Positions 23,380 to 37,541 of a DNA stretch of 64,000 nt are shown here, one piece after another. Position numbers and translations under genes: made by a program. The stretch is taken from assembly GCA_965223845.1 (NCBI GenBank), contig CBDCXR010000004.1:2720001-2784000 (forward strand), read 5' to 3'. How positions within the stretch are numbered: position 1 is the stretch's first letter; the number at the start of each line of letters is the position of its first letter. The stretch comes from Planctomycetota bacterium (GTDB lineage Bacteria; Planctomycetota; UBA8108; SXIK01). A model generated the notes under the pieces. That model made no database searches. It saw only the letters and a program-made list of their open reading frames with translations, and was not told where the DNA came from.

Positions 23380-23976
23380 TCAGGTGTCGTAGTCGTGCTC
23401 TTCAGCCGTCAGCGACACATCGCTGATCCCGAGGCGCTTGCAGATGTCGAGGATGTTGACAACCGACTGCCACGGCACTTGATTCTCGAAGTTGATCTCG
23501 ACCGGGAGCCCCTTGTCGCTCGCACCGGCACTCTCGAAGCGCTGGTGGCGGTACTGGAGGTACTGCTCGACCTCGCGGAAGTCCGGCGACGCGTAGTCGT
23601 AGCGAACAATGCCGCCCTCCGTCGCGTTCTCCATGCGCGTCTCGGTATGCCAGGAACCGTCGGTCAGCTGCTTCGCGTTGGGATCGAACGGGAAGGTGAA
23701 CTGCTGCCGCGTGTCCCCGTTCATCTGGTAGTTGAGCGTCGTGCAAAGCACCTTTCCGGCTTTGTCCCAAGCGAGGTAGAAGGCCACCTGATCCGAAAGC
23801 ACGGGAGGTGGTCCACTCGAGACACCGCGATCCTTGGGAAGATAGGCCTGGAGCTGCCCCTCGAACGCGATGAACTTCGCCGTGAGGACGAAGAAGATGA
23901 GAAGCTGGAAGATGATGTCGATCATCGGCGTCAGGTCCGGCTTCTGATCTTCCGTCGAACGCTCTCGAAGCTTCAT
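23380..23976 (-). CDS. exbD: ExbD/TolR-family protein
   Basis: PDLTPMIDIIFQLLIFFVLT with the conserved TM Asp; VPWQSVVNILDICKRLGI. Confidence 0.88.
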   Translation of the reverse strand: MKLRERSTEDQKPDLTPMIDIIFQLLIFFVLTAKFIAFEGQLQAYLPKDRGVSSGPPPVLSDQVAFYLAWDKAGKVLCTTLNYQMNGDTRQQFTFPFDPNAKQLTDGSWHTETRMENATEGGIVRYDYASPDFREVEQYLQYRHQRFESAGASDKGLPVEINFENQVPWQSVVNILDICKRLGISDVSLTAEEHDYDT

Positions 23977-24058: not shown

Positions 24059-24574
24059 TCACTCCGGGTCGATCGACGCGACAATCACGCGGTAGATCCC
24101 CGCCTGCCCGCACGCCCAAAACACGTCGCGCGTGAATTCCGCGCGGACGCCGCGGTCGCCGCGGACGAGCACTTTCAGCTTGGAGAGTTTCTTGCCGCTC
24201 GGCCCCGGCTCGAAGCCGTTTCCGCGACCGGCCGGGGGAGGTTCGCGGTCGTACCGCGCCTCCTCCTTCAGCCGAGCGAGGAGCTCTTCTTTCTTCAGCG
24301 TCTCGCCCCCGAACCGGATCAGCCCGGCCCGCTCTCCCCGGTCCTTCGCGAGGCCCTCGGGGTCGCGGACGATGTTGATGATGAGCGGGGCGGACGTCGC
24401 ACCGCCGCCCTCCTGCTGCTCCTCACCCTCGAGCGCCACCGGCAACTCGACCTCTTCCACCTGGACCGTGATCTTGGTCGTCAGGATGAAAAAGAGGATG
24501 AGGAGGAACACGCAATCGATGAGCGGCGTCATGTCGGGCGTCGCTCGCTCGGGTTCTCGTGTTCGCAGCTTCAC
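24059..24574 (-). CDS. exbD: ExbD/TolR-family protein
   Basis: PDMTPLIDCVFLLILFFILT; VLVRGDR...VFWACGQAGI; GAGG RBS before the GTG. Confidence 0.9.
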   Translation of the reverse strand: MKLRTREPERATPDMTPLIDCVFLLILFFILTTKITVQVEEVELPVALEGEEQQEGGGATSAPLIINIVRDPEGLAKDRGERAGLIRFGGETLKKEELLARLKEEARYDREPPPAGRGNGFEPGPSGKKLSKLKVLVRGDRGVRAEFTRDVFWACGQAGIYRVIVASIDPE

Positions 24575-24608: not shown

Positions 24609-25382
24609 TCAGGATGACTTGAACCTTCCGACGATCTCTTCGGCGATCCCGCCCACCTCGAGGACGACGTGGACGACGCGGTTCTTGAAGACCGTGTAGA
24701 GAACGGTCATCGGAATCGCGACCAGAAGCCCGAGGAACGTTGTCACGAGCGCGGTCGAGATACCGCTCGCGAGCTCGTTCGGCTTCGGCTGGACTTCCGC
24801 GCCGGCGATCGTGTTGAACGTCAGGATCATTCCGTAGACGGTACCGAAGAGGCCGAGCATCGGGGAGACGGCCGCGATCAGAGCGAGGTAGCCCACCTTT
24901 TGGTGGAGCTTCGTCGTCTCGAGCTCGCCGGCCTCTTCCATCGCCCGCTGCATCTCCTCGTAGCCGTCGTCGACTCGCTCGAGGCCCGACGCGAGGATGG
25001 CCGAGAGGAAGGAAGGATTGGCCTCGCAGACGTGGAACGCCTCGTCGTGCTCGCCGTCGTCGAGAAGCCCTTCGACCTGCTCGAGGACGTCGGGTGGGAT
25101 CAGAGCGTCGCGCTTGATCTGAAACGCGAACGTGATCGCGAGCGAGAACCCGACCACCGAACAAATCAGGATAATGAATCCGATCACGCCACCGTCGGTG
25201 ACGTAGGTGAGGGCGCTCTTCGTCGGCGCCGCGGTCTCCTGCGCGAATACGGTGTCACCGCCCGCGACGAACCAAAAGAGCGCCACGGCGGCGATCGAGC
25301 ACAAAAACGCGCACACCATTCGGCGCGCTCCGATCCCGCCGCGCCCGAGAATGGGCGTGTCGGCGATCCATTTCCGCTGCAT
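24609..25382 (-). CDS. exbB: MotA/TolQ/ExbB proton-channel protein
   Basis: SPMLGLFGTVYGMI...F...LASGISTALVTTFLGLLVAIP. GAGGAG RBS before ATG 25382; N-terminal signal-like segment. Confidence 0.92.
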   Translation of the reverse strand: MQRKWIADTPILGRGGIGARRMVCAFLCSIAAVALFWFVAGGDTVFAQETAAPTKSALTYVTDGGVIGFIILICSVVGFSLAITFAFQIKRDALIPPDVLEQVEGLLDDGEHDEAFHVCEANPSFLSAILASGLERVDDGYEEMQRAMEEAGELETTKLHQKVGYLALIAAVSPMLGLFGTVYGMILTFNTIAGAEVQPKPNELASGISTALVTTFLGLLVAIPMTVLYTVFKNRVVHVVLEVGGIAEEIVGRFKSS

Positions 25383-25439
25383 ATCTGAACTCCTCGTCGA
25401 TCTCTCTGAATTCACGGCCGGCTCAAACCAAGGTTGCAG

Positions 25440-26495
25440 TCAACTCTCATTGCCACGGGCGCGCGCTGCCCACTCCGACGCGCGATCCTTGTTGCCGAGG
25501 CTTTCGTACACTTTGGCCAGCGCTGCTGCCGTTCGGCGCTGGATCGGCCATTCCTTCGGGTAGAGCGCGGCGACGCGCAAAAACCAAATTTCTGCCTTTT
25601 GAAGATTCTCTCGGCCCCCGAGCCCGATGTGCGCCCGACCGACGAGGTAGGTCGCTTCGGCTCGGTGACTGTCGTAACGAAACTCGCGCACGCGCGAGGA
25701 ATCGAAGAACACGGAGTCGAGCTCCTTGATCGCGCGGTCGAACTGCTTTCGCGCGATGAAAATCCGACTGCGAAGAGTGTAGGCTTCGTGCCGGAGAGCG
25801 AACGGGATCGAACGATCGCGGGTAACGTTGTTCAGCGCCCGCGTCGCCGCTTCGTACTGTCCCTCCGCCTTCGACTCGATCGCCGCGCGGGCGCGGCCGA
25901 TCACGGCGCGCGACCCCCACTGGCCGCCGAACTGCTCGAGCGATTTGAAGGTCGTCGCGGCGGCGGAGCCATCGCCGAGAGCGGTCTGGGCGAGCCCGAG
26001 CTCGTAGACGGCACTCGGGAGCCACCAGTCCTTTTCGGCCTCCGCCGCTTGAACGTACTTTTGCAGCTGCGTTACGGCTTCGTTGTGCTTCCCCGCCTCG
26101 GCGAGTGCACGTCCGAGAAGGTACGACGCCTCGAGCTTCTCCCAGTTCTGGCCCCCGCTCGACACGCGCTCGAGCCGTCGCACGGCGTCGGCGTACCGCC
26201 CCGCGGTGAGCGACTTCCGTGCTTCGGACAGATCGCGACTCTGGGCCGCGCGAGTGATCGACGCGACGGTCGCGCCCTTCACGCTCTGCACACTCTTTGA
26301 CCGTCCCTGCCGGAACTGAATCGTGTCCCACTGCGCGCGGACGATCTCCACGTCGTCCAGCGTCTGGCCGTTGAGCTGCTCGATCGTGTCGGCGCGCGCG
26401 CTGACGGCAGCGACCCCGGCGACGATCAACGCTGCGGCGGCGCAGCGGCGAAACCGACCCATCGTGCTTCGGTAATCCATCGTCCTCGAACTCAT
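25440..26495 (-). CDS. Secreted TPR protein
   Basis: Signal peptide (SARA/DT), TPR helices (ASYLLGRAL, AVYELGLAQ, ATYLVGRAH), FLRVAALYP; start overlaps the upstream stop. Confidence 0.8.
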   Translation of the reverse strand: MSSRTMDYRSTMGRFRRCAAAALIVAGVAAVSARADTIEQLNGQTLDDVEIVRAQWDTIQFRQGRSKSVQSVKGATVASITRAAQSRDLSEARKSLTAGRYADAVRRLERVSSGGQNWEKLEASYLLGRALAEAGKHNEAVTQLQKYVQAAEAEKDWWLPSAVYELGLAQTALGDGSAAATTFKSLEQFGGQWGSRAVIGRARAAIESKAEGQYEAATRALNNVTRDRSIPFALRHEAYTLRSRIFIARKQFDRAIKELDSVFFDSSRVREFRYDSHRAEATYLVGRAHIGLGGRENLQKAEIWFLRVAALYPKEWPIQRRTAAALAKVYESLGNKDRASEWAARARGNES

Positions 26496-29431
26496 AGTCC
26501 CTTCTCTTCCTTCGCCCGCTCCAAGATCTGGAGGAAATCACTCTTCTTTCCGCCCATATCCGAGGCGGTTCGGGGCTCGATGATCCGAATGATCTCACCG
26601 AACTTGTTCGCATCGCCCGCCGAGCCGAGGAAGAGCTTCAGCTTCATCAGGGTCAGGGTCCAATCCCAGAAGGTCTGATCAAGCGACTGCGCGAGCGCTT
26701 GGAGCTCCGGGTTCTGCACGGCTTGCGCGGCAACGCTCTTCGACCGAGCCTCCATGAGCGAGCAAGCCCAGTCGTAATACTTCTCCGCGGAGAGCGCTCG
26801 CGAAGTGTTGAGCTTCCCGCTCGTTCGGTAGATCTCACCCAGGTCGCGATAGACGTACGGGTCTTCCTCGTTCCGGCCCTTCCCGGGCGAGAACTCCTTG
26901 ATGTACGCCTTGAGAGTCTTGACTGCGTCCGAGCGATCTCCCTTCGCGCGCTCCACTCGCGCGGCGACGAGGAGATATTGCCGCCGGACTTCGGGCTCCT
27001 TCGCCGAGCGGTGCTTCTTGACGCGGTCGGCGAATTGCCCCGCCGCCTTCAGGAAGGCGGTTCTACGCTTTCGACTCCCGGACTCGACCGCGCCGGCGGC
27101 GAGACGCGACGCGACCATGAGAAGCGCATCGACATCCTTGAGGTCGTCGGCCGAGCGAGGATTGAGCGCGTAGTAGAGGGTGTGGAGTGCGGTCTCGTCT
27201 GCGTTCCCGAGATCGTTGAAGCAGTCCGCGACGTTCAGCGCCGCGTACCCGAGGACTGGTTCGTCCGAGCAGGTCTTTCGGATGGAGGCGAGCTGATCTT
27301 TCGCCTTGTCACACTCGCCGGTGCGAGCGAGGCAGAGAGCGTAGTAGGCGACTCCGGTGCACCGGGAGTCCGAGTCCTCGAGCTCACTCGCGAAGCGACC
27401 GAACGCCGTCGCCGCTTCCGGCCACTCACGCTTCAGGTAGTGCGTTTGCCCGAGGGCGAGAGTCGCCGTCGCCGCGCCCGCCTCGTCGCCGGCCGCGAGC
27501 GCCTTTCCGTAGATGTCCCCGAGACTCGCGACCGCCGCCGCGAGCTCGTCCTCCCACGGGTTCTCCTCGCCTTCGAAGCGGCTCCAAAGCTCGTAGATCA
27601 TCGCTTCCGCGCTCGCCTGCGCGCGCCAGTAGAACGGGACGGCGTTCTTCTTGCCGTCCTTCTCCACGAACTCTGGCACTTCCTGGTAGCGCTTCCGCGC
27701 CTGCTCGAAGCGACCGTCCTTCGCGGCTTGGTCGGCCTCGATCAGCGTCGCCCGATGCGCCTCGAAACCACCACCTTCGAGCCGGTCGAAGAGGGTCTTC
27801 GCCTGATCATTGAGACGAGTCACCTCGGCATGAGCGGTGGCGTTCGGTGTGTTCTGAACGGTCTTCGTCGCGGCCGCGAGGAAATTCCGCGCCGACTTGC
27901 TCGCGAGCTCACTCGAGCCGAGCGCACCGCCGAAAACGTCGAACAGCTCGGCGTAGGCCACCGCGGACTCGTGGAAACGCCCGAGGAGGAAGAGCGCCTC
28001 TCCGATCTCACTCAGACAGATCGGACCGTAGGTCATGAACTCGCGCGGCGACAAGACGCCGAGCGCGGTTTGGAACGTCGTGAGCGCATCTTCCCAGCGA
28101 AGCTCCGCCTTCAGCCCCTGGGCCGCCTGATAGTAGTCCTGTCCCCGAAGAGTCACGCCCTTGATCAGAGCGACGCGCCCGAGCGCCTTCCGCGCGTCGA
28201 TGACGTAGGCTTCGGCGGCAGCGTCACCGTCGTACGCCTCGATGATCTTGTGGATGCTGTCGAGACCCCGCTCGACTTCGCCGTCGCCAGCGAGAGCTAC
28301 CGCGTGCTCGAGGCGCGTGAGGATCGCGAACTGCCGCAGAGTAGGATCGCCTTCGGCGGTCGAGAGATCGAGCTGGTCGTTCTTTCTCTCGGTGAGAACG
28401 AAGTTCTCTATGGCGAGTCGCGCCTTCTGGTAGTCGCCCGCGGCGTTCGCAGCGCGGGATCCGAAGAGAATCGCCTTGATTCGCAGGTCCTTGAACGCGG
28501 CGACGATCGCAGGCTTGTACGGCCGCGCCGAGAGCGGTTCGATGTCGTAGAGAATGCTCAGGTGGTCGTACGCCAGTAGGTTCTGTCCGAGCTCGTAGGC
28601 GATGATTCCGCGCTTCAACTGCGCGTCGTACTCCATCACGTAGAACTCCGAGCGGTTCTCGACGAAGAAGTCCGCAAAGGCAAGCGCCTCTTCGAGCGTC
28701 TTCTTCCGCTCCCCGGAGCCCCGCGGCCATTCGCGTCCGTATCGCGTGTAGAACTCGATCCGGGCGAGCTCGGCCTGGTTCCGAATGACCAGAAGCGCGT
28801 CCGCGGCCTCCGCTTCAGCCCCAGCGATCTTCGCATCGGCGTCCTTGATCTGCGCCTCGATCGCCGGCACTACCTGCTCGGAGAAGGTCTTCTTCGCACG
28901 CGTACGCAGCTTCGTGGCCTGCTCGGGCGTCCTCGAGGCGACGAACAGATCCCGGAGCGCGTTCTGAAGCGTGCTCTCGATCGTTTGCAGTCCGCCGACG
29001 GACGCTCGGCCGTGATCGGGAAACTTTCGCTGAAACTCCTTGAGCGCGGCGGCGAAGCCTTCTTCGTCACCCTTCGCCTTGAGGAGATCGAGCCGGTAAC
29101 TCTCTGTCTGGGCGAGGTCGTTCTCGCTCAGCCCTCGGCTCTCCGCCTTCGCGGCGAGCCAGCGCTCCGCGGTGTCGTAGTAGCGGAGCTCCCGGATGAG
29201 AAAGTCGGCGAACTTGCGATCCTGCTGCGTCCAAGCGCCGCCAAACGGCGTCGTATCGCTCTGCGCGGCGCCGAGGCCACCCGGAGCGGCAAGGAGCGCC
29301 GCAACGACGAGTCCCGCGACCAAGGCGCAGGGTCGAGCCGACGTCCGCCCATAGCGCGGGCGCCGAACCGGAAATGAGACGACGTCAGATCCGACGTCCC
29401 AAACAGCGTGCGCGCGTCGAGTGAGCTTCAT
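26492..29431 (-). CDS. Large secreted all-alpha / TPR-like protein
   Basis: ~980 aa ORF, hydrophobic signal segment LVAGLVVAALLAA, TPR-like repeats. Start uncertain (29503, 29431 or later). Confidence 0.75.
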   Translation of the reverse strand: MKLTRRAHAVWDVGSDVVSFPVRRPRYGRTSARPCALVAGLVVAALLAAPGGLGAAQSDTTPFGGAWTQQDRKFADFLIRELRYYDTAERWLAAKAESRGLSENDLAQTESYRLDLLKAKGDEEGFAAALKEFQRKFPDHGRASVGGLQTIESTLQNALRDLFVASRTPEQATKLRTRAKKTFSEQVVPAIEAQIKDADAKIAGAEAEAADALLVIRNQAELARIEFYTRYGREWPRGSGERKKTLEEALAFADFFVENRSEFYVMEYDAQLKRGIIAYELGQNLLAYDHLSILYDIEPLSARPYKPAIVAAFKDLRIKAILFGSRAANAAGDYQKARLAIENFVLTERKNDQLDLSTAEGDPTLRQFAILTRLEHAVALAGDGEVERGLDSIHKIIEAYDGDAAAEAYVIDARKALGRVALIKGVTLRGQDYYQAAQGLKAELRWEDALTTFQTALGVLSPREFMTYGPICLSEIGEALFLLGRFHESAVAYAELFDVFGGALGSSELASKSARNFLAAATKTVQNTPNATAHAEVTRLNDQAKTLFDRLEGGGFEAHRATLIEADQAAKDGRFEQARKRYQEVPEFVEKDGKKNAVPFYWRAQASAEAMIYELWSRFEGEENPWEDELAAAVASLGDIYGKALAAGDEAGAATATLALGQTHYLKREWPEAATAFGRFASELEDSDSRCTGVAYYALCLARTGECDKAKDQLASIRKTCSDEPVLGYAALNVADCFNDLGNADETALHTLYYALNPRSADDLKDVDALLMVASRLAAGAVESGSRKRRTAFLKAAGQFADRVKKHRSAKEPEVRRQYLLVAARVERAKGDRSDAVKTLKAYIKEFSPGKGRNEEDPYVYRDLGEIYRTSGKLNTSRALSAEKYYDWACSLMEARSKSVAAQAVQNPELQALAQSLDQTFWDWTLTLMKLKLFLGSAGDANKFGEIIRIIEPRTASDMGGKKSDFLQILERAKEEKGL

Positions 29432-29594
29432 TCCTTGATCGATCACTTCGGTCACCGGACCAGCATCTCCCCACGTCTCCACTTCTCTTCGCATCTCTTC
29501 CACCGTTGAAGTCGCGAACTTCCGAGACGCCGCGTGCCCGTCACCGCCGCTCGGGCGATCACGGGCACGTGGCGAAACATCGTCGCGCCGAAAA

Positions 29595-32573
29595 TCACGT
29601 ACCGAAGAGCCTCGCCTCTTCCTCGTGGACTACCGTCACCTTGGCGTTGATCAGAACGAACAGGTTGCGCCGGAGCGTCGAGACTCCACGCCGCCCGAGG
29701 ATCAGGTTGAGGATCGGCATATCGAGGAGGCCGGGCACGCCGATCGACGTCTTCGTCGCGATTTCCTGTTTGAGTCCACCGACCAGCACCGTACCGCCGT
29801 CGGGAACGGTGACGGTCGTCTTGATCTTCGTAACCGAGAGCACGGGCAACTCGACCGGAACCACCGTGAAGTTTCCGGACAGGTTGAGCCGTGCCACGTC
29901 GCTCTCGAGCTGCTCGGCCAGCGTCGGCTGGAGCTCGAGGACGACGTACTTGCGATCGTAGCTGAGCGTCGGTCTCACCTCGAGGATGGAGCCCGAGTTG
30001 AGGACGCCGATCACCGGGTTGATGACCGGGATGACACCCGTCTGGTTGACCTCGAGGTCCTGGATGTACGCGCTCTGCTGGACGACCAGCGTGTGGGAGG
30101 TCTGCCCGTTGAACGCGGTGACCCGCGGGGAGTTGAGGCGCCGCACTTCCTGCTCCTTCGCGACGCCGGTGAGGATCGCTTCGAGCTGGAATCGCTCGGC
30201 CTTGAGAACGTTGAGCTGGTAGACGCCGCCGCCCTCGTTCGTGAGGTTGAACGGATTCACGGCGGAGCCGAGCGGGGTGCTCAGATTGCCGATCGACGCG
30301 ATACGCGCGTTGTAGTCGCCCTGCGGGTTGACGTACTCGTACCCGGGCTGAACGCTCGTCCCTGCGCCGTCGATATCGGGAATCGTGTTCGGGAGGAAGG
30401 TATTGCTCGCACTACCGAAGTCGACGCCGATCTCCTCGAGGAAGTTGTCGTTAATATCGAGGAAGCGCGACTCGACGGTCACCATGACGCCGGTCGACTT
30501 GCGGAACTGCTTGAGGAGCTTCACGAGCTTCAAGTGATTCGCGAGCGTCGTCCGCGCCGCGAGCTTTCCGGCCATGAGGCTGATCCCGGCTTCGTCACCG
30601 CCGCCGCCATCATCCTCATCGCCGCCGCCTTCGAGCTCCTTTCGGATCAGGTCGAGCAGCACGTCCGTCTCGAGCGGCCCCTGCGCTTCGGGCTCCCCAC
30701 CGAGGTCGATGAGGCTCTCGTCGCCGCCCGTCTTTCCCGCGAGCTCGTCGAGCGCGAGCCCCGGAGCCTTGAAGTCCGGACGCGAGCTGATCAGGTCGTT
30801 GATGTCGTAGAACTTGAGGTACTTCCGCACATTCAGGGACTCTTGCGGACCGATCTGAACCGCGCCGTCCTTGATGGCGTATCCGAAACCCGTCCCCGCC
30901 TTCGATCCAATCGTCTGGAGGATGATCTTGAGGATGCTCTCGAGCGGGAGATTGTTGTACTGCGGAAGCTGGATCGTCTCCTCTTCGTGCTCCGCACCCT
31001 CGCGGGTGAGAACGAAGTTGATCGCGGAAATCTCCCGGAGGGTGTTGAGGACGTCCTTGAACGACGTCTCCTGCTCGAAGTTGAGGCTGTGCTTGGCGAG
31101 AAGCTTCGCCTTGATGTCTCGCTCGCTCGCCGTCTCGCTCGCCGCGATCTCGTCTTCGAGGCTGACGACCTTGGGCGCGAGCCGGAACCACTCGTCGCGC
31201 TCCGGATAGCGGAAGATCTGCTGGTAGACGATCGAGCTCTCCTCGATTCCGATCACCGCGAGCTCGTAGTTCTCTGCGTAGGCCTTTCGGAGTCGTTCCT
31301 GCGTCTGCGTCTGCAAGTTGTCGCGCGCGATCTTGAGGCGGAGATTCGCTTCCTTGTCTCGCGCGTCGATGAGGAGAATGCTCTCGTAGAGCGAGACCGC
31401 GCGCTTGTAGTCGCGAGCGTCCTCGGCGGCCCGCGCCTTGCGGCGGAGCTGGCGAAGCTTGTTCTCGACGATGCGGAGGTCCGAGTTTCGCTCCTTCGCC
31501 TTCTGCTCGGCGATCATCTTGCGGAACGCTTCGCGCTCGGCTTCTTCCTGCTCGCTCTTCAGCCGCTCGAGCTGAGCGAGACCGGTCTTGACTTCGGCCT
31601 CGATGGTGTCGAGATCGAGATCGAACGGATAGTTGCGAATGGACTCGAGCACGCGCTCGTAGGCGTCGATGGCCTGAGCGTACTGCTGCTCGTCTTTGTG
31701 CCTCGCCGCTTGCGTCATCAGGCGGTGGATTTCGACCCGCGCCTGTTCCTTCTGCACTTTGTGGGTGTTCACGATATCGCGAATCGTCGCCCCGACTCCG
31801 GCGCCGGAGTCTCCGAGGAGGAGACGCACTTCGTCGAGGAGGCGACCCGCGGCCTCGTTCCCCGGATCGACGGAGACGGCTTCCTCGAGCGCGGCTTCGG
31901 CCTTGAGGAGATCGGCATTCGCGCGGTGGGCTTCCGCCTGACGGACGAGCTCGGCAGCGTGTTCGCGCCGGGCTTCCTTGCCGAGACCGAGCTCGTCGAT
32001 GAGCTGTCCCGGATTGATCTGACGCGTGGGACGGCGCGCGGGACGCGGCGCGGGACGCGTGGGAGCGGGCTCCGGCGCGGGCTCGACGACGGGGGTGTCA
32101 TCGTCGTCGTCGTCGTCGAGGAGGTCGAGATCGTCGTCGTCATCGTCGTCGAGGCTGACGTCACCATCGCCATCGTCGAGGCTGACGTCGTCGTCGTCGT
32201 CGAGCGACAGATCGTCGTCGTCATCCAGATCGAGATCGTCGTCATCGTCTAGACCCAGATCGTCGTCATCGTCCAGGTCGAGATCGTCGTCATCGTCCAG
32301 GTCGAGATCGTCGTCATCATCGTCGTCGAGGTCGAGGAGGCTCTCGATGTCCTCGTCGTCGCTCTCCTGACCCCCTCCGCCGTGAAGACTGCCGCGGTCG
32401 TCGCTCAGCGGCGAGTCCCACTCGCGCGTCTCTTCTCCGAGCAGGATGCCCTGCCGCACCCAATCCTCACTCACGAGCGACGTCTCGCGACGTGGCTGGT
32501 TGCTCGAGCACGCGGCGATGAGCGCCAGCAGAAACCCGACCGCGCAGAAGCTGCTCAGCCTTCTGAAATCCAT
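29595..32573 (-). CDS. Secretin-family lipoprotein with acidic N-terminal repeats, paralog A
   Basis: MDFRR...LIAAC lipobox with AAGGGA RBS; TPR/coiled coil; N0-like FEQETSFKDVL; VTVESRFLDINDNFLEEIGVDF; TTVTVPDGGTVLVGG...VPGLLDMPIL. Confidence 0.88.
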   Translation of the reverse strand: MDFRRLSSFCAVGFLLALIAACSSNQPRRETSLVSEDWVRQGILLGEETREWDSPLSDDRGSLHGGGGQESDDEDIESLLDLDDDDDDDLDLDDDDDLDLDDDDDLGLDDDDDLDLDDDDDLSLDDDDDVSLDDGDGDVSLDDDDDDDLDLLDDDDDDDTPVVEPAPEPAPTRPAPRPARRPTRQINPGQLIDELGLGKEARREHAAELVRQAEAHRANADLLKAEAALEEAVSVDPGNEAAGRLLDEVRLLLGDSGAGVGATIRDIVNTHKVQKEQARVEIHRLMTQAARHKDEQQYAQAIDAYERVLESIRNYPFDLDLDTIEAEVKTGLAQLERLKSEQEEAEREAFRKMIAEQKAKERNSDLRIVENKLRQLRRKARAAEDARDYKRAVSLYESILLIDARDKEANLRLKIARDNLQTQTQERLRKAYAENYELAVIGIEESSIVYQQIFRYPERDEWFRLAPKVVSLEDEIAASETASERDIKAKLLAKHSLNFEQETSFKDVLNTLREISAINFVLTREGAEHEEETIQLPQYNNLPLESILKIILQTIGSKAGTGFGYAIKDGAVQIGPQESLNVRKYLKFYDINDLISSRPDFKAPGLALDELAGKTGGDESLIDLGGEPEAQGPLETDVLLDLIRKELEGGGDEDDGGGGDEAGISLMAGKLAARTTLANHLKLVKLLKQFRKSTGVMVTVESRFLDINDNFLEEIGVDFGSASNTFLPNTIPDIDGAGTSVQPGYEYVNPQGDYNARIASIGNLSTPLGSAVNPFNLTNEGGGVYQLNVLKAERFQLEAILTGVAKEQEVRRLNSPRVTAFNGQTSHTLVVQQSAYIQDLEVNQTGVIPVINPVIGVLNSGSILEVRPTLSYDRKYVVLELQPTLAEQLESDVARLNLSGNFTVVPVELPVLSVTKIKTTVTVPDGGTVLVGGLKQEIATKTSIGVPGLLDMPILNLILGRRGVSTLRRNLFVLINAKVTVVHEEEARLFGT
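32097..32366 (-). repeat. Coding tandem repeat, ~24 bp unit encoding (L/V)x L D5
   Basis: Translation LDLDDDDDDDLDLDDDDDLDLDDDDDLGLDDDDDLDLDDDDDLSLDDDDDVSL... Confidence 0.9.
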
Positions 32574-33370
32574 GACTATCCCTTTCCGGACTCCCGCGAG
32601 GACCGAACGTCCCAGCGGGATCTCGACGCTTGAATGCAGATCACGACCCGCCGCCGGTGTCTCCGAGCGCCGAGCTGGTCGTCTAACTAGCGATGCGAAA
32701 ACCTCAGATCCACGAGTCGGCACGGTGGAACCACTGCGACCAAGAGCCAGAGGGCTGTCGGGCGCCCGAGACGGACGGGGACCACCGATCGAGTCTCTCA
32801 GATCTGTCATGATGAACCTGCTGTAGCCGACGAACGGCACGGTGCGACGCGCACCACCCGTTCGACCGTGGATTGTCCTGAGTTGTGTGATCTAGGCGGA
32901 GGTTCGATCCCGGTTCTCGACGACGACCCGCCCGGACGACGGCGCGAGTTTTGCGCGCCTCGCCGTCCGACGAGGTCCCCGGAGACAACCGCAGGGGCGG
33001 AGTACGGGATCAAAAAAGGAGTGCCACCGGTAGAGCGTTCAGGTGGGGAACGGGGACGCCGAAGGGCCCGAGTGACTCGGGAGACGAACCCCGCGCTCGC
33101 GAACGAAGGATCGATCCGCGAGAGCGACTCGCCGGAGCGCTTCGAGTGCCACCCAGAAGCGAACGGCGAGGCGGTCCGGGTCGAGGCGACCCGAACTCGT
33201 TTCATGTTCCCATTCCCGATTCTGAAAATCTACCTCTTTTCTAACGAACCGTGTTTCTGTCGATCGCAGCTCACCGTTTCGCTCCCGGCGATGCCGAGGG
33301 TTGAAGGTCGAGCCGCGCTGTCATGTTCTTGCCGCAGCACGAATTCGCGTCGCGCCGCGTATGTGAATTC

Positions 33371-34459
33371 CTAATTGCCCCCGAAACCCCGGTTTCCGCG
33401 CCGCGGACGGCGGGTCGGCGCCGGGGAATCGTCGGTCGAAGGCTCCGGCACCGCTTCCACTTCGGCGGGCTCTTCGTCGCCTTCGGTGCCGTCACCGTCG
33501 TCCTCTGAGGCGCCGACGAGGGGCGACCACAGCTCGACCGTGAACGGGCGGTCTTTGCGGGAAATCGGGTAGCGCGCGCCGCGCACGCCCGCGCTGCTAT
33601 CGATGATCGTAACGGACTTCGATGCTTCGTCGATGCGGCGAATCTCGTAGCGATCGTTCCCGAACTTGACGCGCTCGCCGAGCGTCGTGCTCGACTTCGT
33701 CACGACCTCGCCCTTCGCGTAGTCCCAGTACTGATACCGGCACAGAACTCGCGTATCGGTGCCGTCGACCAGCACGTTCGACACGCGGAAGTTGAAGTCG
33801 TAGGGGATCGCCTCCGTCGGCCCCAAGACCTCGGACTCCTGGCGCCGCGCCGCGAGAGGTTCGACGTGTTCGACCGAACGATCCTCGACGGCTTCAGTGA
33901 TGATCTTGTAGGTGTAGGTCTTGCCCGGTTCGACGTCGAAATCCGGATACTGAAAATCGCCGTCCGCTTCGAGCGAGAGCTCACGAAACGAGCCACCCTC
34001 GCCTTCGCTGCGAAGAAGCCGCACCTTCTCGAGGACGATGTTCTCGTTGATCGAGCTCATCTTCCCCTCGACGAGGAGATACACCTTCTTCTTCTGGGCA
34101 TCGCGCAGACAGCTCACCTGAGCCACTGCGGCCGGTTCGTGAACGCTCGCGACGGCTTGAATCTCCTGGGTCCGCTTGATGAGCGCCGGGGCGGCCTCCG
34201 TCAGCCAGCCCGCATCCGTACTGCCGACGCCGGGGTCCCACTGCGAACGCAGAATCCCGACGACATCGACGACGGGATCCTGAAGGAGCGGCTCCTCGGA
34301 TTTCTGCTGGTACGTACGAACTTCCGCATTGAGGTCGTTGCGGATCTTGTCGACGTCCCCGCCGGCAAAGAACGGAAGCGCGATCAGCGCAAGGCCGAGT
34401 ACCGCAGCGATACCGTAGGAGACTTTGTCGATTTGCTGGACTAGGTTCTTTTCGGACAT
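33371..34459 (-). CDS. Membrane-anchored periplasmic protein with Fn3-like domain (PilP/GspC position)
   Basis: N-terminal TM YGIAAVLGLALIALPFF; Fn3-like FQYPDFDVEPGKTYTYKI; acidic/Pro C-terminal tail. Confidence 0.7.
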   Translation of the reverse strand: MSEKNLVQQIDKVSYGIAAVLGLALIALPFFAGGDVDKIRNDLNAEVRTYQQKSEEPLLQDPVVDVVGILRSQWDPGVGSTDAGWLTEAAPALIKRTQEIQAVASVHEPAAVAQVSCLRDAQKKKVYLLVEGKMSSINENIVLEKVRLLRSEGEGGSFRELSLEADGDFQYPDFDVEPGKTYTYKIITEAVEDRSVEHVEPLAARRQESEVLGPTEAIPYDFNFRVSNVLVDGTDTRVLCRYQYWDYAKGEVVTKSSTTLGERVKFGNDRYEIRRIDEASKSVTIIDSSAGVRGARYPISRKDRPFTVELWSPLVGASEDDGDGTEGDEEPAEVEAVPEPSTDDSPAPTRRPRRGNRGFGGN

Positions 34460-34523
34460 GACAACTGGTCCTCAGACAGAGGCCGCGGCCCCTCGTAGAT
34501 GGATTCGTGGGGAGAGCGACGCC

Positions 34524-35519
34524 TCATACGTCATCATCATCATCGTCGTCATCGTCATCATCATCGTCGTCGTCGTCATCATCATCATCGTCGTCGTCAT
34601 CGCCGGCTTCGATCGGATCGTAACCCTTCCAATCGAGAGCACTCAGCTGAAACGCAACCGTGACGACGGCGGGAGAGACGATGCTGTCATACGACGCCCG
34701 TTCGGCTGTCCCGGCGTCGTCGAAGGTCTGTTCCACCTGAAGCCCGATGTACGGAGTGAGCTGCTGGGCGGACTTTTGCGCGGTGAAGCCATCGAGCATG
34801 AAGAGAACGCGGTCGCTCTCGAACAGCTTCGCGAGCGTCTCTTCAACGAGATCGAGCGGCATCTCGACGGTGATATCGAGCGTGATGCGACGGTAGTGCT
34901 CGGTTTCCGTTTCGTCGTCGCCGCTCCGCCCGCCTCCAGTCCGCTCCCCGAAGTTGAGAATCTTCAGGCCGCCGATCTCTAGCGCGGTCAGAGCCTCGAA
35001 CACCTCGCTCACGATCCAAAACTCCCGCATGAAGCGCGGGACCATGTCGTCGGTGATCGCGGAGTCCTCGACGATATCGACCTTCGGGATCTCGTCCCCG
35101 GATTCGCTGTCGACGGTGATTCCGAACTTCTCGCGGTAACTCGACACGATGGCCGAGATTCCCTCGCGGTAACGGGCGGAGAACTCGCCGGCCGACATAT
35201 CGTCAGCGTTCGGATCGAAATACTCGGAGAATTTCGCCTGCCGCCGGTTGTAGAACTCGGCGCCGGCGTTGTGAGCGATGCGCTTGCGCTCGACCCCCGT
35301 CTCCAGCGCGTCGCGGTAGCGTCGCGTCGGCGCGACGTCCGCGCGGTTGTACTTCTTCGCGCTGTCGAGCTCGCGCTGGAGCGCATCGCGTTTCCCGGGG
35401 ATGGAGTCCGACCCGCTCCCGTAGAGGGGCTGGAGGACCAGGAACCACGAGAGCGCGCCGAGAACGACGACGATCGCTCCGAGCGAAATCCAGTAGAGAT
35501 TCTCTTTCAGCTTATCCAT
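34524..35519 (-). CDS. PilO-like bitopic membrane protein with D24 tail
   Basis: N-terminal TM, coiled coil, beta/alpha C-terminal domain; directly follows pilMN. The PilO assignment rests on position and topology. Confidence 0.6.
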   Translation of the reverse strand: MDKLKENLYWISLGAIVVVLGALSWFLVLQPLYGSGSDSIPGKRDALQRELDSAKKYNRADVAPTRRYRDALETGVERKRIAHNAGAEFYNRRQAKFSEYFDPNADDMSAGEFSARYREGISAIVSSYREKFGITVDSESGDEIPKVDIVEDSAITDDMVPRFMREFWIVSEVFEALTALEIGGLKILNFGERTGGGRSGDDETETEHYRRITLDITVEMPLDLVEETLAKLFESDRVLFMLDGFTAQKSAQQLTPYIGLQVEQTFDDAGTAERASYDSIVSPAVVTVAFQLSALDWKGYDPIEAGDDDDDDDDDDDDDDDDDDDDDDDDV

Positions 35520-35579
35520 GCTTCAGACGGTTCCCTTCGGCAGAAGATTTCGCACGAGGACGAGGATCGACGGCTTCGT

Positions 35580-37541
35580 TCATGCGTCGTCGTCATCGTC
35601 ATCATCATCGTCGTCATCATCATCGTTGTAGTATTCGTCGTCATCATCGTCGTCGTCGTCGTCGCCCGCATCCGGGTCTCGGTACTTCTCGGGCAGGACG
35701 TACCACGACGTCAACGCGCCGTAGTACGGCGCGCCGGCTTGCTTCGACTCCTCGTTTCCACCTTCGATCTGCTCTGCGGTCGGATCGTCAACGTAGATCG
35801 CGTTCAAGTTGCCGACGCCGGGCTTGACGACGACCTCCGTCAGATGGGTGAGATCCGCATCACGGATCTGGGCCCGCCCGAGCGCCGTCTCGAGGGGGCG
35901 CTCGAATCGCTCGACAATCGTCTCGTGATCCTGGATCTGGTTACCGCTGCTCTTCACGACGACGAACGCCGAGAACTTGAGCGCCGGCTGCTTGCCGTCT
36001 TCCTTGTTCGATTGTCCGCGCTTCTTCTTGCCGCCGACGTCCTCGGGATAACGGACGGACTCCATCGCCACGTACGGCACCCACATCTTGCCGCTCAATC
36101 CCGCGATGACATCGTCGAGCACCCCTGTGGCGCCCGTCGCGTCTTCCGCCCGGAGCTGCCGGGTCACCGCGTCCTGATTCGGCGTCGACGCGAGCACTCG
36201 CTCGAGCACGCGAATGGCTTCGATCGCGTGATTGCGATGTTTTCCGACTTCGGTCAGCGTCGCCATACCCGAAGCGATCTTCTCGTCCGCCTCCGTGCTG
36301 AACTTCTCGATCTGGGAGTAGACCGACTTCGGCTCCCGGAGCTCGTCCTTAGCGTTTTCGATCGCCGAGGCGATCTGTCCGCGCTTGTGCTGGACGAGCG
36401 CCCACGCGATCAGAATCGCCACGAGGAGAGCGGCCGCCGCGATGAATGCGTGCTTCTTCTTCCGATCGACTTCCTTCTTGACCTTCTCCTCCGTCGGGAT
36501 GAGGTCGACGTCGCACGTCCCGAATCCGATCGCCTGAAGGCCGCCGCCGAGGGCGGGGGCGAACGCCGGCAAATCCGCCTGGAGGAGGCGGACGTTGACC
36601 TCACGGCTCAGCCGCACGCGCCGGATCGATTGGGCGCGCTCGACCGGGACACCGAGGTGCTCCTGGAGGAAATTCTTCAGACCGACCAGCTTCGCGCCGT
36701 TTCCGAAGAGGAATGCTCGGGCGAAGTTCGCTTCCCCGGCCTGGCTTCGGTAGTAACCGATCGACCGGTGGATCTCCTGGACGAGATCGCGGAGTTTCGG
36801 CTGAAGCACGGCGTCGAAAATCTTCTTCGCCTGTTGGGGGTTCCGCCCCATCTGCAGCTTCAGTCGCTCGGCTTCGCTAAACCCGAGCTTGAAGCGCTGC
36901 ATCATCGCCCGAGTGATGTCTTCGGAGCGGTGCGGCAGGGGTCGACTCCAGAACCGCTCTTTGTCGATGAGGACGAGATCGGTGTGCGATGCGCCGAGAT
37001 CGAGAACGATCGCGGGCTCCTCGAGATCGAGGTCATAGGCGGCGAAGTTGAAGAGCGCGAGATTGCTGACCGACAGCATCTCGACGTTGAGGCCCTCGTT
37101 CGCGAAATCGATGAGCGAGTCATCGATGGCCTCGCGTCGAACCGCGAAGAGACTCACGTCGCGCTCTTCGCCGGAGCCGTACTCGCGGTCGACGACGTGA
37201 AAGTCCCAGATGACTTCGTCGAGAGGAAACGGGATCTGCTGCTGCGCCTCGTAGCCGACCATCTCCGCGAGACGTTTCTGGTCGAACGCCGGGATCTTGA
37301 TGAAGCGCATGAACGTTCCCTGGGTGGGGTGAACGACCACCACCGGGTCGCGAACGTCGTTACGCGACTTGAAAATCGCCAGCGCTTCGCGCGCCTGCCC
37401 CGCGTCGAATCCGTCTGCCCCCGCCGTGTAGTCGACCTTGTCGACCGCCAGGATCTCGACGTTGGCCTTATCTCGGCGGAGGTGCACCGCCTTCAGAGAC
37501 GACTTGCCAATATCGACACACCAGATCGTGTGGAATGCCAT
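35580..37541 (-). CDS. pilM: Type IV pilus assembly PilM-PilN fusion with poly-Asp tail
   Basis: Actin-like VDIGKSSLKAV, YEAQQQIPFPLDEVIWDF, LDLGA, EIHRSIGYY, GNGAKLVGL; then VDLIP (PilN INLLP equivalent), TM and coiled coil. Confidence 0.88.
   Translation of the reverse strand: MAFHTIWCVDIGKSSLKAVHLRRDKANVEILAVDKVDYTAGADGFDAGQAREALAIFKSRNDVRDPVVVVHPTQGTFMRFIKIPAFDQKRLAEMVGYEAQQQIPFPLDEVIWDFHVVDREYGSGEERDVSLFAVRREAIDDSLIDFANEGLNVEMLSVSNLALFNFAAYDLDLEEPAIVLDLGASHTDLVLIDKERFWSRPLPHRSEDITRAMMQRFKLGFSEAERLKLQMGRNPQQAKKIFDAVLQPKLRDLVQEIHRSIGYYRSQAGEANFARAFLFGNGAKLVGLKNFLQEHLGVPVERAQSIRRVRLSREVNVRLLQADLPAFAPALGGGLQAIGFGTCDVDLIPTEEKVKKEVDRKKKHAFIAAAALLVAILIAWALVQHKRGQIASAIENAKDELREPKSVYSQIEKFSTEADEKIASGMATLTEVGKHRNHAIEAIRVLERVLASTPNQDAVTRQLRAEDATGATGVLDDVIAGLSGKMWVPYVAMESVRYPEDVGGKKKRGQSNKEDGKQPALKFSAFVVVKSSGNQIQDHETIVERFERPLETALGRAQIRDADLTHLTEVVVKPGVGNLNAIYVDDPTAEQIEGGNEESKQAGAPYYGALTSWYVLPEKYRDPDAGDDDDDDDDDEYYNDDDDDDDDDDDDDA

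Follow-up and report, generated by a model that had tools for sequence, protein, structure and literature searches.

The closest known counterparts of the locus studied here are the type IVa pili of Pseudomonas aeruginosa and Myxococcus xanthus, in which PilM, PilN, PilO and PilP act together with the secretin PilQ, and the parts of which assemble 12-fold. A comparable row of genes is present in an uncultured Planctomycetota bacterium, within a 64,000-nucleotide (nt) stretch of DNA that we call the window (positions 2720001-2784000 of contig C4; all window coordinates count from the window start). The genome has 7.93 Mb, 65% G+C and four contigs, and the locus lies on the contig of 7.87 Mb. 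It encodes a PilM-PilN-like fusion (PilMN), a PilO-like protein, a third protein with two beta-sandwich domains, and a secretin (secretin A), and long tracts of aspartate (Asp, D) are found in three of them: at the C-termini of PilMN and of the PilO-like protein, and as an Asp/Leu array past the lipobox of the secretin. To our knowledge, no long acidic tails on PilN or PilO have been described. The tracts are rare in the genome and clustered in this locus, yet not unique, and we somewhat favour the view that they represent a lineage-specific, homopolymeric form of a disordered, charged periplasmic tail, selected for its charge, length and disorder and serving as a non-specific polyanionic brush or cation sink.

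Like the type IVa systems, the planctomycete locus has a Pfam PilM domain, a bitopic partner with a PilO fold and a secretin, and its genes are likewise ordered from the inner-membrane platform proteins to the secretin. It differs in that PilM and its membrane partner form one fusion protein, sequence comparison does not detect the PilN and PilO families, a protein with two beta-sandwiches stands in the place of PilP, the secretin carries tetratricopeptide repeats (TPRs), and genes for TPR proteins, ExbB/ExbD and a second secretin come next in the locus; besides, the genome has a canonical PilMNOPQ-like locus at another site, and that locus is devoid of acidic tails. By analogy, the machine would work like the type IVa alignment subcomplex with its secretin, while differing from it in composition. 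A further counterpart comes from Akkermansia muciniphila, which belongs to the Planctomycetes-Verrucomicrobia-Chlamydiae (PVC) superphylum. The PilO-like protein finds its best structural match in the Akkermansia protein Amuc_1100 (PDB 6lad, 6laf, 6kny), with a TM-score on target of 0.53-0.58, but the sequence identity is only 10-13%, and the solved chains comprise 171-197 residues.

Charged low-complexity segments are already known from other envelope proteins. Neisseria PilQ has small basic N-terminal repeats (Ala/Lys/Gln-rich octapeptides), and TonB and TolA contain charged low-complexity periplasmic spacers. The array of secretin A resembles that of Neisseria PilQ in being a tandem low-complexity element placed between the signal/lipobox and the folded periplasmic secretin domains, but it consists of Asp and Leu, with a net charge of -61 and a 24-nt unit. 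The TonB and TolA spacers share with the tails described here a repetitive, charged and extended character and a length and composition that vary by lineage, and the Lys/Pro- and Glu/Pro-rich segments of sister genera look similar to them. Spacers made of Ser-Asp repeats are present in staphylococcal surface proteins (PMC3324548). All these spacers, however, link two anchored ends, whereas the PilMN and PilO-like tails are free, homopolymeric C-termini. Asp-rich regions as a lineage habit also have a precedent among prokaryotes: Asp makes up 15% of low-complexity residues in myxobacteria against a bacterial average of 6%, and acidic regions have been noted in halophiles (PMC6821194). The 13-43 consecutive Asp residues found in the present genome and their clustering in one machine exceed the examples quoted from that survey, and its text does not mention planctomycetes. 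What we did not find in print are homopolymeric Asp tails on PilN/PilO-like proteins or an Asp/Leu minisatellite in a secretin; a literature search, with most subscription journals outside its reach, returned no paper on this locus in planctomycetes, nor any on PilN, PilO or secretins with tails that are acidic or made of poly-Asp.

Poly-aspartate tracts in a PilM-PilO-secretin locus

The genes concerned and their acidic regions are listed below; lengths are given in amino acids (aa).

35580..37541, minus strand: PilM-PilN-like fusion (PilMN), 653 aa; cytoplasmic PilM domain, one transmembrane helix, periplasmic domain, acidic tail
35583..35684, minus strand: PilMN C-terminal tail, 34 aa, net charge -24; YRDPDAG-D9-EYYN-D13-A, with D13 at 35586-35624 and D9 at 35637-35663
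34524..35519, minus strand: PilO-like bitopic protein, 331 aa; without Pfam match, fold from an AlphaFold2 (AF2) model and Foldseek
34527..34622, minus strand: PilO-like C-terminal tail, 32 aa, net charge -26; YDPIEAG-D24-V, with D24 at 34530-34601
33371..34459, minus strand: third protein ('Fn3-like'), bitopic, 362 aa; N-terminal transmembrane helix, two beta-sandwich domains, disordered tail (AF2)
33374..33514, minus strand: third-protein tail, 47 aa; a 33-aa acidic stretch (net -13), then an Arg-rich tip (+5) ending in a Gly/Phe motif
29595..32573, minus strand: secretin A, a TPR-secretin lipoprotein; likely start at Met90 of a maximal open reading frame (ORF) of 1081 aa (to 32840), lipobox Cys at ORF residue 111
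32097..32381, minus strand: acidic Asp/Leu array of secretin A, 95 aa (ORF aa 154-248); 58 D, 3 E, 18 L, net charge -61, 24-nt minisatellite
32022..32096, minus strand: Pro/Arg-rich segment directly C-terminal of the array, 25 aa, net charge +3

The translations agree with the composition and coordinates that the preliminary description gave for the tracts of PilMN (DAG-D9-EYYN-D13-A) and of the PilO-like protein (EAG-D24-V), and with its remark that both C-terminal tails begin with AG. The secretin repeat, put there at ~90 aa soon after the lipobox, turned out to be the 95-aa array, which begins 43 residues past the lipobox Cys, and the shorter acidic tail ascribed to the Fn3 protein corresponds to the 33-aa stretch. 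Both C-terminal Asp tails lie past a single transmembrane helix with Lys/Arg residues ahead of it, and the secretin array lies past the lipobox; in agreement with the periplasmic placement proposed earlier, this topology puts all three tracts in predicted periplasmic parts.

The PilM domain of the fusion, residues 9-335, matches Pfam PF11104 (PilM_2) with E 3.9e-35 and 121.8 bits against a cut-off of 27. It is followed by a hydrophobic stretch with a Lys-rich segment ahead of it, as judged by eye. The 653-aa PilMN has no match to Pfam PilN (PF05137) at E<=0.01, and its C-terminal half leads in the ESM-Atlas to PilN-bearing clusters with scores of 0.83-0.87, all below the threshold of 0.9, so that it is position and topology that suggest the PilN nature of this half.

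In the PilO-like protein no Pfam family was found at E<=0.01, which leaves the PilO model (PF04350) unmatched, and a profile of 17 orthologs gave nothing significant, and no PilO, among PDB sequences. The AF2 model built from an alignment of 17 sequences, with a predicted local distance difference test (pLDDT) score of 73.9, comprises a transmembrane helix, a coiled coil and a duplicated alpha-beta-beta ferredoxin-like core, while the Asp tail has pLDDT <50 and is predicted to be disordered. Foldseek matched this model to Amuc_1100 (E 7.6e-6), to PilO chain 3jc8_Oa of Myxococcus (E 8.8e-4), to 2rjz, the Pseudomonas PilO (E 1.2e-3, TM-score on target 0.57), and to 5uvr (E 2.7e-2). 'PilO-like' is therefore a match at the level of a modelled fold and not membership in a sequence family.

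The model of the third protein (pLDDT 73.6) shows a membrane helix, two beta-sandwiches and disorder over residues 312-362, with the tail at pLDDT <50. Its Foldseek matches to Fn3 domains and tissue factor are weak (best E 4.7e-3; TM-score on target 0.61-0.66 for titin Fn3), none reaches E<=0.001, and PilP and GspC are absent from the matches listed. Neither Pfam nor a profile of its alignment compared with PDB sequences gave a significant match. Secretin A, on the other hand, matches Pfam Secretin (PF00263) at residues 895-1068 with E 3.5e-18.

Tracts of this kind are not common in the proteome. Across the six frames of the whole genome there are nine runs of at least eight Asp, within six ORFs. 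Asp density was assessed in 16,122 ORFs of at least 100 aa and with a third-position G+C content (GC3) of at least 0.70, a set that over-counts genes; at least 18 Asp per 25 aa were found in just eight of them, and three of the eight lie inside this four-gene stretch. The peak per 25 aa is 24 in the PilO-like protein, 21 in PilMN and 20 in secretin A, and the genome maxima for other charged residues are 17 for Glu and 16 for Lys. As a rough estimate, which assumes a guessed 6,500 genes, the chance of finding three of the eight D-dense ORFs within four consecutive genes is ~5e-5. The earlier statement that nothing comparable occurs in the other genes of the window is true, but it does not extend to the genome, which has five other D-dense proteins. 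Acidic tails are missing from the three other PilM-containing loci of the genome, one of which is a canonical PilM-N-O-secretin row. Stretches of 13-24 consecutive Asp are unusual in bacteria, and here they are carried by three parts of one conserved envelope machine.

The conservation of that machine is seen in its distribution. The PilMN fusion is present in 41/41 genomes of the class, and 252 relatives were confirmed across Planctomycetota, including Phycisphaerae, Brocadiia and Uabimicrobium records, when an alignment was used as the query (a single-protein query had returned none). PilMN is followed, in order, by the secretin in all 30 loci that were fetched. BLAST recognised the PilO-like protein in 22 of these loci and the third protein in 17, ORFs of similar size holding the same places in most others, and a large TPR homologue is found downstream of the secretin in 25 of the 30. 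In the loci examined, the conserved core consists of PilMN, the PilO-like protein, the two-beta-sandwich protein and the TPR-secretin, usually followed by the large TPR protein, and it looks like an undescribed envelope machine of Planctomycetota.

Tail charge and tail sequence in orthologs

As to whether orthologs retain the acidic tails, the homopolymer is not retained and the charged tail is. A homopolymeric Asp run was found in none of the PilMN, PilO-like and secretin orthologs of 30 synteny loci and 80 phylum-wide loci, nor in five closer PilO-like proteins (33-42% identity) from a metagenome search of 5.8 billion protein clusters; the tails of the latter are acidic in four of five cases (-15, -11, -6 and -5). 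In the nearest genus, the PilMN of which is 55% identical, the tail delimited by alignment anchors has 34 aa and a charge of -25 (D17 E9), compared with 34 aa and -24 (D24 E1) here, and both tails start with DPDAG. The PilO-like tails of the two genera have 27 aa and -16 there versus 32 aa and -26 here. Among 39 distinct orthologs, with tails anchored by profiles, the PilMN tail is negative in 35 and positive in four, and the PilO-like tail is negative in 26. What the orthologs conserve is therefore a charged, low-complexity or disordered tail, acidic in most lineages, rather than a poly-Asp sequence. They amount to a natural experiment in which fold and gene order stay the same while the tails keep their charge or become Lys-rich, and the comparison allows one to ask whether selection on the disordered periplasmic tails of pilus-like machines is for bulk electrostatics.

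An acidic insert in the secretin is limited to the four genomes of the family, where it occurs in 4/4, always between a conserved Gly-rich motif and a Pro/Arg stretch; the three genomes other than the present one have it in a Glu/Pro-rich or mixed D/E form. Orthologs of the third protein have low-complexity tails of 39-81 aa, closed in 12 of the 13 aligned cases by a conserved Gly-Phe or Gly-Leu-Phe-Gly motif, which may dock into a partner such as the secretin. The form of the motif differs between groups, being Gly-Gly-Leu-Phe-Gly-Gly-Asp-Asp in distant families and Arg/Lys...Gly-Phe-x in this order (here at window 33374-33415). In this combination of an acidic line and a hydrophobic hook, the tail is reminiscent of those at the C-termini of ribosomal stalk proteins. 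Poly-Asp has also arisen anew at another component: runs of D10, D8 or D6 stand right before the conserved C-terminal Gly-Leu-Phe-Gly motif of the third protein in three other genera.

Net charge, length and disorder, and not the sequence as such, appear to be what selection acts on; in spite of its mixed D/E composition, the PilMN tail of the nearest genus equals the present one in length and charge. Under the brush reading that we prefer, in-frame duplication of 12-24-nt GAY units would have produced the Asp runs, the residue being kept as Asp while the codons diverged. The tails would hang from the membrane-distal end of the periplasmic domains of the PilN- and PilO-like parts, and the array from the N-terminus by which the secretin is tethered to the outer membrane. 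Repeated according to the stoichiometry of the ring, they would surround the periplasmic part of the machine with a hydrated polyanionic brush. Such a brush would hold a cloud of Mg2+/Ca2+, keep the parts soluble and in an extended state, and push away other anionic polymers of the envelope, with no need for a specific binding site. The data show that the tracts are present, rare, clustered, periplasmic by topology and disordered, and that orthologs conserve the charge but not the sequence; we infer both this function and the duplication origin from sequence, codons and models. The idea, also put forward in the preliminary description, that the tracts provide disordered spacing across a wide periplasm suits the third protein, the low-complexity tail of which ends in a conserved motif, more than the free ends of PilMN and the PilO-like protein, since spacing fits a linker better than a free C-terminal end.

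Several observations weigh against the brush reading, beginning with the absence of the homopolymer from all the orthologs mentioned above. The PilO-like tail is neutral in ten of the 39 orthologs and positive in three, distant families of the class have short tails of 3-15 aa with acidic tips, and four lineages of the same order (genomes G001, G002, G005 and G009) have Lys/Pro-rich or near-neutral tails, so the machine does not require a negative tail charge. The charges of the PilMN and PilO-like tails are correlated (Pearson 0.70, Spearman 0.52, n=39 pairs), but these come from related genomes, which overstates their independence, and the correlation leans on those relationships and on a few extreme points. 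The third-protein tail shows no correlation in charge with that of PilMN over 33 loci (Spearman -0.14, p 0.43). At Pfam E<=0.01, no Ca2+-binding module (EF-hand, RTX, thrombospondin type 3 or dockerin) was detected in the four tract proteins. Finally, long acidic runs are reported to be hard to translate (PMC9718836, 10.1101/2021.02.02.429294), and this cost would be smallest for an expansion that is merely tolerated at the very C-terminus.

More specific functions were considered as well, the preliminary description having named Ca2+/cation binding, mineral nucleation, DNA mimicry and electrostatic gating as possibilities. We regard as doubtful a dedicated divalent-cation device, in which Ca2+ or Mg2+ would bridge the inner-membrane tails to the secretin array, gate the channel or nucleate a mineral. 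The charge per chain is indeed very high (-24, -26 and -61), all three regions share one compartment, the pairing of acid with acid here and in the nearest genus would need counter-ions, and acidic clusters in low-complexity regions have been linked to the coordination of Ca, Mg and Zn (PMC6821194). Nevertheless, the Pfam scan revealed no recognisable Ca-binding fold or motif, in sister genera the tails of this machine are Lys-rich, and the locus showed no mineral-associated genes.

An electrostatic tether, with the acidic PilMN and PilO-like tails docked on the Arg-rich tip of the third protein and on the Pro/Arg segment of the secretin to make a fuzzy link from the inner-membrane platform to the secretin, is in our opinion very unlikely. 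It would account for the basic patch behind each acidic stretch of the third protein (+5) and of the secretin (+3), for one genus (g5) in which the third-protein tail is +8 to +14 and the PilMN and PilO-like tails are -3 to -13, and for the reversed signs in genome G005, where the third protein has -29 and the PilMN and PilO-like tails have +3 and +7. However, the tails have the same sign on all components here and in most of the class, and the lack of correlation reported above led us to reject a general rule of opposite charges between the third-protein tail and the PilMN/PilO-like tails. G005 itself combines Lys/Pro-rich PilMN and PilO-like tails with a third-protein tail containing 32 Glu, and the sign of the charge flips both between components and between lineages.

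We likewise think it improbable that the tails co-evolve with matched charges and make up an electrostatic element of an envelope-spanning machine specific to Planctomycetota. If they did, and if the assembly were 12-fold, the three proteins would bring about 12 x (24+26+61), or roughly 1,300, fixed negative charges to the surroundings of the periplasmic conduit. A collar of this kind could link the platform in the inner membrane with the secretin in the outer one via divalent cations, or set the spacing between them, which would be of consequence in a phylum where the periplasm can be greatly enlarged and crateriform complexes act like press studs between the membranes (PMC5394234). The change between acidic and Lys-rich tails among sister genera would then amount to a concerted re-tuning of one device.

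Origin of the tracts

The D24 run of the PilO-like protein is encoded by 13 GAT and 11 GAC codons, interleaved, so that GAT makes up 54% versus 33% genome-wide, and the longest run of a single codon in either C-terminal tail is five (GAC x5). A pure coding microsatellite can be excluded on these grounds, and the interleaving of GAC and GAT also disfavours recent slippage of a pure repeat. Tandem Repeats Finder (TRF) reported periods of 21 and 24 nt for D24 (89-92% matches), 3 and 12 nt for the PilMN tail, and 24 nt for the secretin array; because of the periods of 12, 21 and 24 nt, the Asp runs probably grew by in-frame duplication of 12-24-nt GAY units. The initial observation that the tracts mix GAC with GAT and are not pure microsatellites holds for the C-terminal tails, but the secretin array is itself a minisatellite with a 24-nt unit.

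Poly-Asp of similar kind is widespread in the class. The pattern (GAY)9 occurs in 18 of the 41 class genomes, compared with three genomes (eight matches in all) for a reversed-pattern control, and 12 poly-D ORFs examined by eye in six relatives mostly have a signal peptide, a lipobox or a dockerin-like end. The building of poly-Asp low-complexity regions in exported proteins thus appears from these sequences to be a class-wide habit, one that bears on the handling of cations in the envelope and on the tolerance of sequences that are hard to translate. One example, in genome G037 (contig C51), is a 755-aa protein that has a Tat-like signal and ends in a (Gly-Ser)n array followed by D13; it is encoded upstream of and next to a PilM paralogue, the second PilM-like gene of that genome.

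Such a habit raises the possibility, which we hold to be unlikely but take more seriously than the specific functions discussed above, that the tracts are a neutral by-product, in which a mutational tendency to in-frame duplication of GAY units inflated short acidic tips at unconstrained ends and no function was gained. The internal periodicities found by TRF are what it would leave behind, ortholog tails span 3-57 aa in length and -26 to +7 in charge, sister lineages have Lys-rich tails, and among the PilMN, PilO-like and secretin orthologs examined the homopolymer is confined to this genome. Poly-D is also scattered over unrelated exported proteins, both in the 18 class genomes and in five unrelated proteins of the present one. 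Acidic residue runs are reported to be able to abort translation, an effect counteracted by a nascent chain that fills the exit tunnel (PMC9718836, 10.1101/2021.02.02.429294), and the extreme C-terminus would be the cheapest place for such abortion (10.1101/2021.02.02.429294); the low cost of failed translation there is a possible reason for the position of the tract at the extreme end in five of the eight D-dense proteins.

Neutral inflation does not, however, readily account for the fact that three components of one machine are affected while three other PilM loci and nearly all other genes are spared, or that in the nearest genus a tail equal in length and charge has a different composition. 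The PilMN tip is acidic in 35/39 orthologs, and the identity of the residue as Asp has been retained although the codons diverged, both of which likewise speak against it. Were the tails inert after all, the length of a homopolymer alone would be no sign of function.

The support for the tracts in the assembly was also considered. In one search, this DNA was found in four runs of a single sample and study, all in the form of short-read contigs, and no RNA run was listed. The contigs end at 34523/34609 and at 35580/35676, that is, at both borders of the two C-terminal tracts, and they fragment over the secretin array (32.1-32.33 kb). Since they break inside all three tracts, the exact tract lengths come from the assembly alone, while the presence of the tracts is clear from flanking contigs, which enter each of them by tens of bases from both sides. 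One short-read contig has 12 extra bases (four Asp codons) at window 32306, inside the secretin array, which may represent a length variant in the population or a contig of another Asp-repeat gene. These breaks and the extra bases are the reasons to consider that the tracts or their lengths are assembly artefacts, which we find hardly credible: the tracts are in frame and end with normal stop codons, their codons are interleaved in a complex way unlike a collapsed pure repeat, they lie within a 7.87-Mb contig and are entered by contigs from both sides, and the PilMN tail has the same length as in the nearest genus.

Other Asp-rich proteins and neighbouring genes

On visual inspection, each of the eight D-dense ORFs of the genome seems to be exported or to have its tract after a membrane segment or on the periplasmic side; no signal was seen in a ninth protein, which is less dense in Asp and has its D10 run in the interior. 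The most extreme low-complexity protein of the genome is a secreted, Asp/Gly-rich protein of 597 aa (C4:119404-121233, minus strand) with a D43 run, long (D6-x), (G-G-D) and (E-G-G) arrays and a dockerin-like C-terminus, which adjoins a Spondin_N protein. A D-dense HbpS-like protein elsewhere in the genome contains E7-G-D12. Another member of the set is a single-pass membrane protein of 142 aa (C4:2198748-2199179, minus strand), the C-terminal half of which consists of D6-D10 runs split by Leu-Gly; its gene is directly upstream of mreB, mreC and a PBP2-like gene. The remaining two are a kinase-like membrane protein (C4:513438-515642), with a C-terminal array of ~190 aa in which D6 units are split by Trp-Gly or Ser-Ser, and an exported HEAT-repeat protein (C4:7516764-7519358), the C-terminus of which repeats D7 plus two residues and closely resembles the array of secretin A.

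Five poly-Asp tails of the genome, those of PilMN, the PilO-like protein, the 142-aa membrane protein, the kinase-like protein and the HEAT-repeat protein, close with one hydrophobic or small residue before the stop codon, the five residues being A, V, I, F and W, which may be due to chance. A C-terminal signal of the type 'poly-D plus one hydrophobic residue' is unproven, as the closing residue belongs to the repeat unit in two of the five.

Downstream of secretin A, the locus continues with the following genes, all without an Asp tract.

26492-29503, minus strand: large TPR protein
25440-26495, minus strand: small TPR protein
24609-25415, minus strand: ExbB, recognised by Pfam
24059-24574 and 23380-23976, minus strand: two ExbD-like genes, assigned by eye from an N-terminal motif
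20525-23245, minus strand: secretin B, a TPR/STN secretin; Pfam Secretin E 2.1e-25

A scan of the window ORFs, which was not exhaustive, revealed no ATPase, platform protein or pilin. Of the four contigs of the genome, a small one of 15,005 bases (C1) has 48% G+C compared with 63-68% in the other three, and could represent a mobile element or DNA that does not belong in the bin.

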